Positions 1 through 328 of a stretch of 328 nucleotides of DNA are shown here, one piece after another. The notes under the pieces were generated by a model. The model had not been told where the DNA came from. It saw only the letters and a program-made list of their open reading frames with translations, and made no database searches. The translations under genes were made by a program, and so were the position numbers. Source of the DNA: Escherichia coli. Its GTDB lineage: Bacteria; Pseudomonadota; Gammaproteobacteria; Enterobacterales; Enterobacteriaceae. Location of the stretch: assembly GCF_003334335.1 (NCBI RefSeq), contig NZ_QOWQ01000220.1; one strand, written 5' to 3'. Each line of letters begins with the position of its first letter. Positions within the stretch are counted from its first letter, which is position 1.

Positions 1-99
1 GGTGAGCCTGTTGAGCATGTTGATGCTGGCAGAGTAATTCTGATGCCCCCCTCAGTGGCAAAAGACATGGTCAGGAGCGGAATGGCCGTTTATGCGTGA
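1..99 (+). CDS. 3' end of a phage head assembly / DNA-packaging accessory protein, lambda gpFI-like (5'-partial; the start lies upstream of the window)
   Basis: Frame 1 is open from the window edge to TGA at 97-99 and translates to GEPVEHVDAGRVILMPPSVAKDMVRSGMAVYA*. This aligns without gaps to my recollection of the lambda gpFI C-terminus (EPV..V..G.......VA..M...G.A), ending at the same distance from the stop. It sits immediately upstream of an FII homologue, as FI does in lambda (E-FI-FII-Z-U-V). Identity is modest, so the assignment leans on synteny. Confidence 0.55.
   Translation, partial: GEPVEHVDAGRVILMPPSVAKDMVRSGMAVYA
73..81 (+). promoter_or_regulatory. Shine-Dalgarno-like ribosome-binding site for the FII-like gene, embedded in the 3' end of the upstream CDS
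   Basis: AGGAGCGGA at 73-81 is purine-rich and complementary to the 16S rRNA 3' end. The AGGAG core (73-77) is 14 nt upstream of the ATG at 92, which is long, but the GGA at 79-81 gives a 10-nt spacing. Sequence-only call. Confidence 0.4.
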
Positions 100-328
100 T
101 TTTGAGAATTCCTTTGATGCTGCCCTTGCCGGGGTGGACAGAACGATTGTTGAAGTGATGGGACTCTGTGCGCAGTTCACCTCGGGGGCACAGTGTGGCA
201 GCGAAGTTCAGGGGGTTTTTGACGATCCGGAGTCGCTGGGGTTTGCCGGTAGCGGGGTCCGTATTGAAGGAAGCAGCCCGTCATTATTTGTGCGGACGGA
301 TACGGTTCGTGCCGTGCGGCGTGGTGAC
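92..328 (+). CDS. FII: Phage head-tail joining (head completion / tail attachment) protein, lambda gpFII family (3'-partial; continues past the window end)
   Basis: ATG at 92-94 is the only start codon in frame 2 after the in-frame stop at 41-43. The frame is open to the window end and translates to MRDFENSFDAALAGVDRTIVEVMGLCAQFTSGAQCGSEVQGVFDDPESLGFAGSGVRIEGSSPSLFVRTDTVRAVRRGD. This is collinear with lambda gpFII as I recall it (MADFDNLFDAA...TSGEQSG...GVFDDPE...AGQGVRVEGSSPSLFVRTDEVRQLRRGD), roughly 60% identical with no gaps, including the near-invariant blocks GVFDDPE and EGSSPSLFVRTD.VR..RRGD. Confidence 0.9.
   Translation, partial: MRDFENSFDAALAGVDRTIVEVMGLCAQFTSGAQCGSEVQGVFDDPESLGFAGSGVRIEGSSPSLFVRTDTVRAVRRGD

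Follow-up and report, generated by a model that had tools for sequence, protein, structure and literature searches.

The window, that is, the whole 328-nucleotide stretch of DNA that was analysed, almost certainly spans the point at which FI and FII meet, two late genes of a lambdoid siphovirus that resides in Escherichia coli as a prophage and has a head module of the phage-21 type. The sequence of this junction is already known, is annotated as FI/FII in RefSeq and is ordinary. Two long open frames occupy its + strand (frame 1, positions 1-99; frame 2, positions 92-328), as the first-pass annotation had described, and both agree with RefSeq: the FI coding sequence (WP_000201508.1; product of 122 aa) stops at window 99 and the FII coding sequence (WP_001204198.1; product of 117 aa) begins at window 92. 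In frame 2, the ATG at 92 is the first possible start, with none after the upstream stop at 41-43, and the frame remains open to 328. The features referred to below are as follows (window coordinates):

1-99, + strand: 3' end of the FI gene (DNA-packaging chaperone), comprising the last 32 codons (GEPVEHVDAGRVILMPPSVAKDMVRSGMAVYA) and the stop TGA at 97-99.

92-328, + strand: the first 237 nt of FII (product: head-tail joining, stopper or head closure Hc1 protein), codons 1-79 of 117.

92-99, + strand: the 8-nt overlap of FI and FII, ATGCGTGA, with the FII ATG at 92-94 and the FI stop TGA at 97-99.

73-81, + strand: a weak purine tract within the coding sequence of FI, candidate ribosome-binding site of FII, with AGGAG at 73-77 and GGA at 79-81.

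38-99, no strand: right edge of the variable FI cassette (mosaic joint), at which homology to other E. coli prophages begins, as placed by megablast match starts and by identity in 60-nt bins.

Using megablast, the window was found to be 100% identical in four complete E. coli chromosomes (JE86-ST05, JE86-ST02, UCPROB-001 and UCPROB-002) and to be present at 99.7% in many further E. coli, the O104:H4 outbreak lineage included. Of 5,426 complete E. coli genomes, 1,366 contain related copies, as many as five in a single genome and ~1,800 places in all; the matches listed all fall under coding sequences annotated 'DNA-packaging protein FI' and 'head-tail joining protein'. We fetched the JE86-ST05 locus (NZ_AP022815.1; L001 in the coordinates below), in which positions 20001-20328 correspond to the window base for base, and take its prophage as the host prophage in what follows.

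The nature of each gene can be read both from the part encoded in the window and from the full-length product. The window-encoded part of FI is the C-terminal half of its C-terminal domain, and this 32-residue fragment alone matches PHROG 92 ('DNA packaging chaperone FI') at 1.1e-5, on the end of the model (positions 97-128 of 128). Full-length FI matches PHROG 92 at 1.4e-41 (residues 1-121 on model positions 1-127 of 128) and Pfam PF14000 (Packaging_FI) at 1.3e-15 (residues 3-119 against the whole model, 1-131 of 131); in NCBIfam, no model matched FI at E <= 0.1. BLASTP aligns FI with lambda gpFI at 29% identity (E = 2e-9). Moreover, a profile of phage-21-type FI proteins built without lambda is aligned by hhalign with lambda gpFI at 95.2% probability and collinearly (residues 3-120 versus 2-130), the window-encoded tail falling on lambda residues ~100-130 with high column confidence at the motif EPV..V..G......A..M..G.A. 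The two proteins have the same layout (a conserved N-terminal region, a variable acidic middle and a C-terminal domain), but lambda gpFI is 132 aa long compared with 122 aa here, the middle region being shorter here, and only ten of the 32 residues of the window-encoded tail are identical in lambda. PDB sequence searches with the FI protein or with a four-sequence profile without lambda did not retrieve the structure of the lambda gpFI C-domain (PDB entry 2LSM, residues 72-132), whereas lambda's own gpFI does retrieve it. The FI gene sits directly 3' of the major capsid gene E and 5' of FII in the JE86-ST05 prophage, lambda, phage 21, PhiR5_1 and PhiR12. Judged by its sequence, the FI protein is a member of the gpFI family (PF14000/PHROG 92). 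It should also be noted that FI (L001 19731-20096) matches two further PHROGs: PHROG 15460, labelled 'terminase', over the N-terminal 67 aa of FI (4.7e-21), and PHROG 2353, labelled 'major head protein', at the C-terminal end of that model (positions 361-476 of 481, 4.2e-15). These two matches suggest that FI-like domains are fused to, or mis-clustered with, capsid or terminase proteins in some phages.

The part of FII encoded in the window reads MRDFENSFDAALAGVDRTIVEVMGLCAQFTSGAQCGSEVQGVFDDPESLGFAGSGVRIEGSSPSLFVRTDTVRAVRRGD. On its own, this 79-residue fragment matches PHROG 5874 at 1e-38, PHROG 82 ('head closure Hc1') at 3.8e-27 and Pfam PF05354 (Phage_attach) at 3.8e-9. The full-length protein matches PHROG 82 at 5.9e-51 and the NCBIfam equivalog NF049848 with 53.2 bits (cut-off of 25), and it finds PDB entries 1K0H, 2KX4, 8K37, 8XOW, 8XPM and 8XQB, with lambda virion structures among them, at 3.2e-52. 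Its identity to lambda gpFII is about 70% (82 of 117 residues, no gaps, E = 9e-61), and lambda gpFII (PDB entry 1K0H, and 8K37 in the virion) has the same length of 117 aa and the same FI-FII-Z position. The two proteins share the C-terminal PPAVNRRR and the β-hairpin core GVR(V/I)EGSSPSLFVRTD, and differ more in the N-terminal helix and in residues 20-40; the hairpin region is PESLGFAGSGVRIEGSS here and PENISYAGQGVRVEGSS in lambda. On the same kind of evidence, FII is a member of the gpFII head-tail joining family (PF05354/NF049848/PHROG 82). Since the 79-residue fragment by itself reaches PHROG 5874/82 and PF05354, and the 32-residue fragment PHROG 92, the assignment of the two frames to FI and FII is not a product of chance.

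These results bear directly on the first-pass annotation, which had read the window as the FI/FII junction of a lambdoid head-completion module and had proposed a profile search for the lambda FI and FII families. All four profiles concerned (PF14000, PHROG 92, PF05354 and PHROG 82) were matched, and the reading is supported by the Pfam, PHROG, NCBIfam and lambda-protein matches alike. In particular, the translation of 92-328, on which the reading had been made to depend, falls in the gpFII family.

We further compared the codon positions of the window with those of four relatives (phage 21, PhiR5_1, PhiR12_1 and PhiR12_2*). In FII, 10, 2 and 20 variable columns fall on codon positions 1, 2 and 3, respectively (chi-square p = 5e-4), which is the bias expected of a frame under purifying selection. 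In the FI tail the distribution is 16/16/22, which is not significant in this small set of four relatives.

The closest classical phage is phage 21, through its FI/FII pair (OL657228.1 CPT_21_09/10; gene 8 and ORF1 of M81255): blastn aligns it with window 10-328 at 84.7% DNA identity, and it has the same ATGCGTGA overlap and the same gene order. Since blastn finds phage 21 and its relatives, whereas lambda gives no match to the window at the DNA level, the head module is of the phage-21 type and not of the lambda type. At the protein level, identity to phage 21 is 96% for E, 58% for FI (20 of 32 residues in the window-encoded tail), 86% for FII and 67% for Z, compared with 60%, 29%, 69-70% and 68%, respectively, for lambda. 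Z being only 67% identical to its phage 21 counterpart, homology drops once more directly 3' of FII, and the tail module belongs to another lineage. A second mosaic joint was observed at this head/tail module boundary, from window ~412 onward (L001 ~20412-21200), where identity to phage 21 passes from ~0.9 to ~0.7 after FII; the Z protein itself is 177 aa long in the host prophage, compared with 192 aa in phage 21 and lambda (67% identity). Closer matches were found in the PhiR5_1/PhiR12 series (PV340545, PV340549-54), in which PhiR5_1 and PhiR12 are annotated with FI and FII and the same overlap as the window. PhiR5_1 matches the whole window at 96%, with an FI tail identical at 32 of 32 residues. 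The PhiR12 series has FII in common with the window (96% aa) but a different FI allele (52% aa), and thereby defines the mosaic joint inside the window. The records that contain the PhiR5_1 (96%) and PhiR12 (92%) junctions were deposited as phages, and their listed host is E. coli C or MG1655. The lambda picture drawn by the first-pass annotation therefore holds for the identity and the order of the genes, and needs amending in three respects: the closest classical relative is phage 21, the FI tail is identical to that of lambda at only ten of 32 residues, and the junction is an 8-nt overlap with an ATG start for FII, whereas lambda has an 11-nt FI-FII spacer and an annotated GTG start.

In JE86-ST05, for which the flanking 40 kb were read, the late operon lies on one strand in the order Nu1-A-W-B-C-D-E-FI-FII-Z-U-V-G-T-H-M-L-K-I-J-lom-stf, in which Nu1 and A are the small and large terminase subunits, B is the portal, C an S49 protease, D the decoration protein, E the major capsid protein and H the tape measure; the lambda order C-Nu3-D-E-FI-FII-Z-U-V-G-T agrees with it. 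FII is placed between FI and the genes for tail completion (Z) and the tail terminator (U), at the boundary of the head and tail modules (E-FI-FII-Z-U-V), in the host prophage as in lambda and phage 21. On the 5' side of the late block are Q, a lysis cassette and three tRNAs, and to the left of the late region one finds genes for replication and immunity, an exonuclease and, next to yccA, a tyrosine integrase. An exact direct repeat of 65 bp is present at record positions 1,189,365 and 1,239,649 (L007 9366-9430 and L001 37738-37802) and corresponds to attL and attR; its right copy overlaps the last ~60 nt of the tRNA-Ser gene that immediately precedes hyaA. The integrase and this repeat thus place the window inside a prophage of ~50.3 kb whose integration site, the 3' end of tRNA-Ser, lies between yccA and hyaA. 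The expectations that D and E lie upstream and Z, U and V downstream, and that the window belongs to a prophage, are thus borne out, the former in both lambda and the host prophage and the latter by the integrase and the att repeat. Indeed, inspection of the flanks for terminase, portal, capsid and tail genes and for attL/attR, as had been recommended, found all of them in JE86-ST05, the flanks being phage structural genes in the lambda order. The annotation gives all ~25 genes for structural and packaging proteins, Nu1 through tail fibre, as intact. Among the early and lysis genes it lists pseudogenes (a split DUF551 gene, a partial ead/Ea22, a frameshifted DUF4752 and a partial YdfR).

Several other observations were made while reading this prophage. 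The late-regulatory region (L001 2705-9483; NZ_AP022815.1 ~1,204,616-1,211,394) contains the Q antiterminator, a DNA methyltransferase, tRNA-Ile/Arg/Arg, a SASA-family (NanS-p-like) esterase and a holin, a layout that we take to be the one familiar from Stx-converting phages. The usual stx slot holds TerB-family and DUF3927 proteins, with no stx annotated. Between the tail-fibre genes and attR (L001 34873-37604) lie a YadA-like gene of 1,464 nt, a hypothetical gene and a minus-strand gene for a YkgJ-family cysteine-cluster protein; these are probably moron or cargo genes, with a possible adhesin among them. Also present in the prophage are hokD, for a type I toxin, and dicB, for an inhibitor of cell division, at L001 681-836 and L007 13631-13819, as in Qin/Rac-like cryptic prophages. 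Just outside attR, hyaA (hydrogenase-1 small subunit; L001 38257-39401) is annotated as frameshifted in JE86-ST05. Finally, two places in the JE86-ST05 chromosome (NZ_AP022815.1) match the window, and some E. coli have up to five. This multiplicity indicates that related lambdoid prophages coexist in one genome and could exchange FI/FII alleles.

At the junction itself, the 8-nt overlap shows no substitution in phage 21, PhiR5_1, PhiR12_1 or PhiR12_2*. The AGGAG of the candidate purine tract is located 14 nt before the FII ATG, which is longer than the usual spacing, and the GGA at -13 to -11 corresponds to the ribosome_binding_site annotated for the FII homologue of phage 21. The overlap suggests an arrangement compatible with translational coupling. 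FI and FII are co-transcribed within the long late operon and, given the 8-nt overlap, translation of FII is probably started by ribosomes that terminate at the end of FI or read through it.

What the two products may do can be proposed by analogy with lambda. As summarised in two reports (PMC4856287, PMC7889075), lambda gpFI is an assembly chaperone that aids the association of Complex I (terminase-DNA) with the prohead; it stimulates terminase-prohead association and packaging and is absent from the virion. The proposal made there is that it sits on the gpE lattice and works by binding DNA non-specifically. The FI product would likewise be a non-virion chaperone on the major-capsid lattice of the prohead, and would help the terminase-DNA complex to dock there, so that packaging can start. 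The stopper of lambda, gpFII, is a hexameric ring that lies between gpW, the adaptor, and gpU and is needed for the tail to attach; its N-terminal helices (residues 4-24) seat the gpW adaptor barrel, and a hairpin (residues 46-62) enters the gpU tail-terminator ring by β-sheet augmentation (PMC10721106). By alignment to lambda gpFII, residues 1-79 encoded in the window cover the N-terminal helix, the first strands of the β-sandwich and the β-hairpin, and thus include both the gpW- and the gpU-interaction elements. With 70% identity to its lambda counterpart, hairpin residues 46-62 included, the FII product would form a hexameric 'stopper' ring beneath the gpW adaptor on the DNA-filled head, and this ring would offer a docking surface for the gpU-terminated tail.

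The window is uneven in its conservation. FI (window -269 to 99, L001 19731-20099) is less conserved than the other proteins of the E-FI-FII-Z block, whichever comparator is used. Its N-terminal 41 residues are near-invariant (33-41 of 41 identical among phage-21-type relatives), and the flanking E and FII keep 86-97% identity while the middle and C-domain of FI vary. Against PhiR12_1, for instance, identity is 15 of 46 residues in the middle region and 14 of 32 in the window-encoded tail, compared with 92% for E and 96% for FII. At the DNA level, in 60-nt bins, identity to PhiR12_1 is 0.43-0.52 at -128 to -8 (the 3' half of FI), 0.73 at 52 and at least 0.93 from 112. We sampled 30 rows, spaced evenly along the ranking of the 1,368 E. 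coli records with a match; their megablast alignments begin at window 1, 10, 38, 50, 53, 79 or 92, and 29 of the 30 reach 328. From the uneven bins and the scattered starts we conclude that the window holds the right-hand joint of a variable FI cassette. The variation of the FI tail, present at all three codon positions, fits an exchange of diverged alleles rather than drift; FII is found at 88% identity or above in about a quarter of complete E. coli genomes (1,366/5,426), with changing FI alleles next to it. It has long been known that lambdoid genomes have mosaic joints where genes meet, so the FI/FII joint is typical rather than new.

Might the two genes be correctly named and yet be idle? 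They could be evolutionary leftovers, or parts borrowed by recombination with lambdoid phages that infect the cell, in a defective and non-inducible prophage, and this is the alternative to which we give real weight, although we consider it unlikely. Cryptic members are common among lambdoid prophages, the junction occurs up to five times in an E. coli genome, and the pseudogenes in the early and lysis regions mean that FI and FII may not currently serve phage production. However, the structural and packaging genes are intact from Nu1 to the tail fibre, the integrase and both att repeats are present, the PhiR5_1 and PhiR12 junctions come from phage records, and the FII frame is under purifying selection. 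The JE86-ST05 prophage is probably still functional. A more ambitious reading of the uneven conservation is that the window straddles a preferred recombination joint and that the variability of FI stems from diversifying selection, not from neutral mosaicism. The middle and C-domain of FI would then be a hypervariable cassette between the conserved E and FII, with its right breakpoint at or just before ATGCGTGA. We regard this as improbable. More doubtful still is the idea that FI is not a true gpFI orthologue and is instead a chimera, in which an FI-like N-terminal region is joined to an unrelated C-terminal domain with a different partner. The marked difference between 33-41 of 41 identical residues at the N-terminus and 14-20 of 32 in the tail (PhiR12_1 and phage 21), or 10 of 32 against lambda, could be taken in this sense, as could the failure of the PDB sequence searches to reach 2LSM; yet PF14000 is matched over its full length, C-terminus included, the 32-residue tail alone finds the C-terminal end of PHROG 92, and the hhalign alignment stays collinear with lambda through the motif at residues ~100-130.

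Finally, an extra element could be hidden in the window, be it an antisense ORF (minus strand, 52-180 or 177-284), a small RNA, or an internal promoter or terminator tuning the stoichiometry of head and tail proteins, but we find this scarcely credible. The complete ORFs of at least 20 aa inside the window are one of 20 aa on the + strand and two of 42 and 35 aa on the minus strand. The minus-strand pair match no PHROG or PADLOC family, have no antisense gene annotation among the genomes listed, and show variation that follows the sense frame, the third-position variation being that of the + strand FII frame; as genes they were rejected. The minimum free-energy fold does have a long 3' hairpin, but the window folds like its shuffles (z = 0.19; 55 of 100 shuffles fold as well or better), and a permissive Rfam scan gave snoR442 as its sole match, at 20.9 bits compared with a gathering score of 50, so that a hidden RNA element was also rejected. 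No sigma-70-like promoter or intrinsic terminator was found in the window (0.1 and 0.2, respectively, are expected by chance), and the proposal of an internal promoter or terminator was dropped. The first-pass annotation had seen no hallmarks of defence in the window; PADLOC indeed assigns 0 families to all four candidate products (FI, FII and the two minus-strand ORFs), and defence or toxin cargo in the window was rejected on that basis.

The window thus remains best read as the FI/FII junction of a phage-21-type head module in a lambdoid prophage. FI and FII are textbook lambda head-completion genes, and the window matters little in itself; the mosaic joint that it captures is its only point of interest, and a mildly instructive one. 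If the variability of FI did turn out to be the work of diversifying selection, FI would determine specificity or immune evasion in lambdoid phages, a role so far unrecognised, and would possibly be driven by escape from a host sensor of the prohead-terminase-FI complex or by the matching of terminase specificity. The practical value of the window is as a landmark for a tRNA-Ser-integrated lambdoid prophage of ~50 kb with a phage-21-type head module, which is found in enteroaggregative/O104:H4-like and other E. coli (99.7-100% matches).
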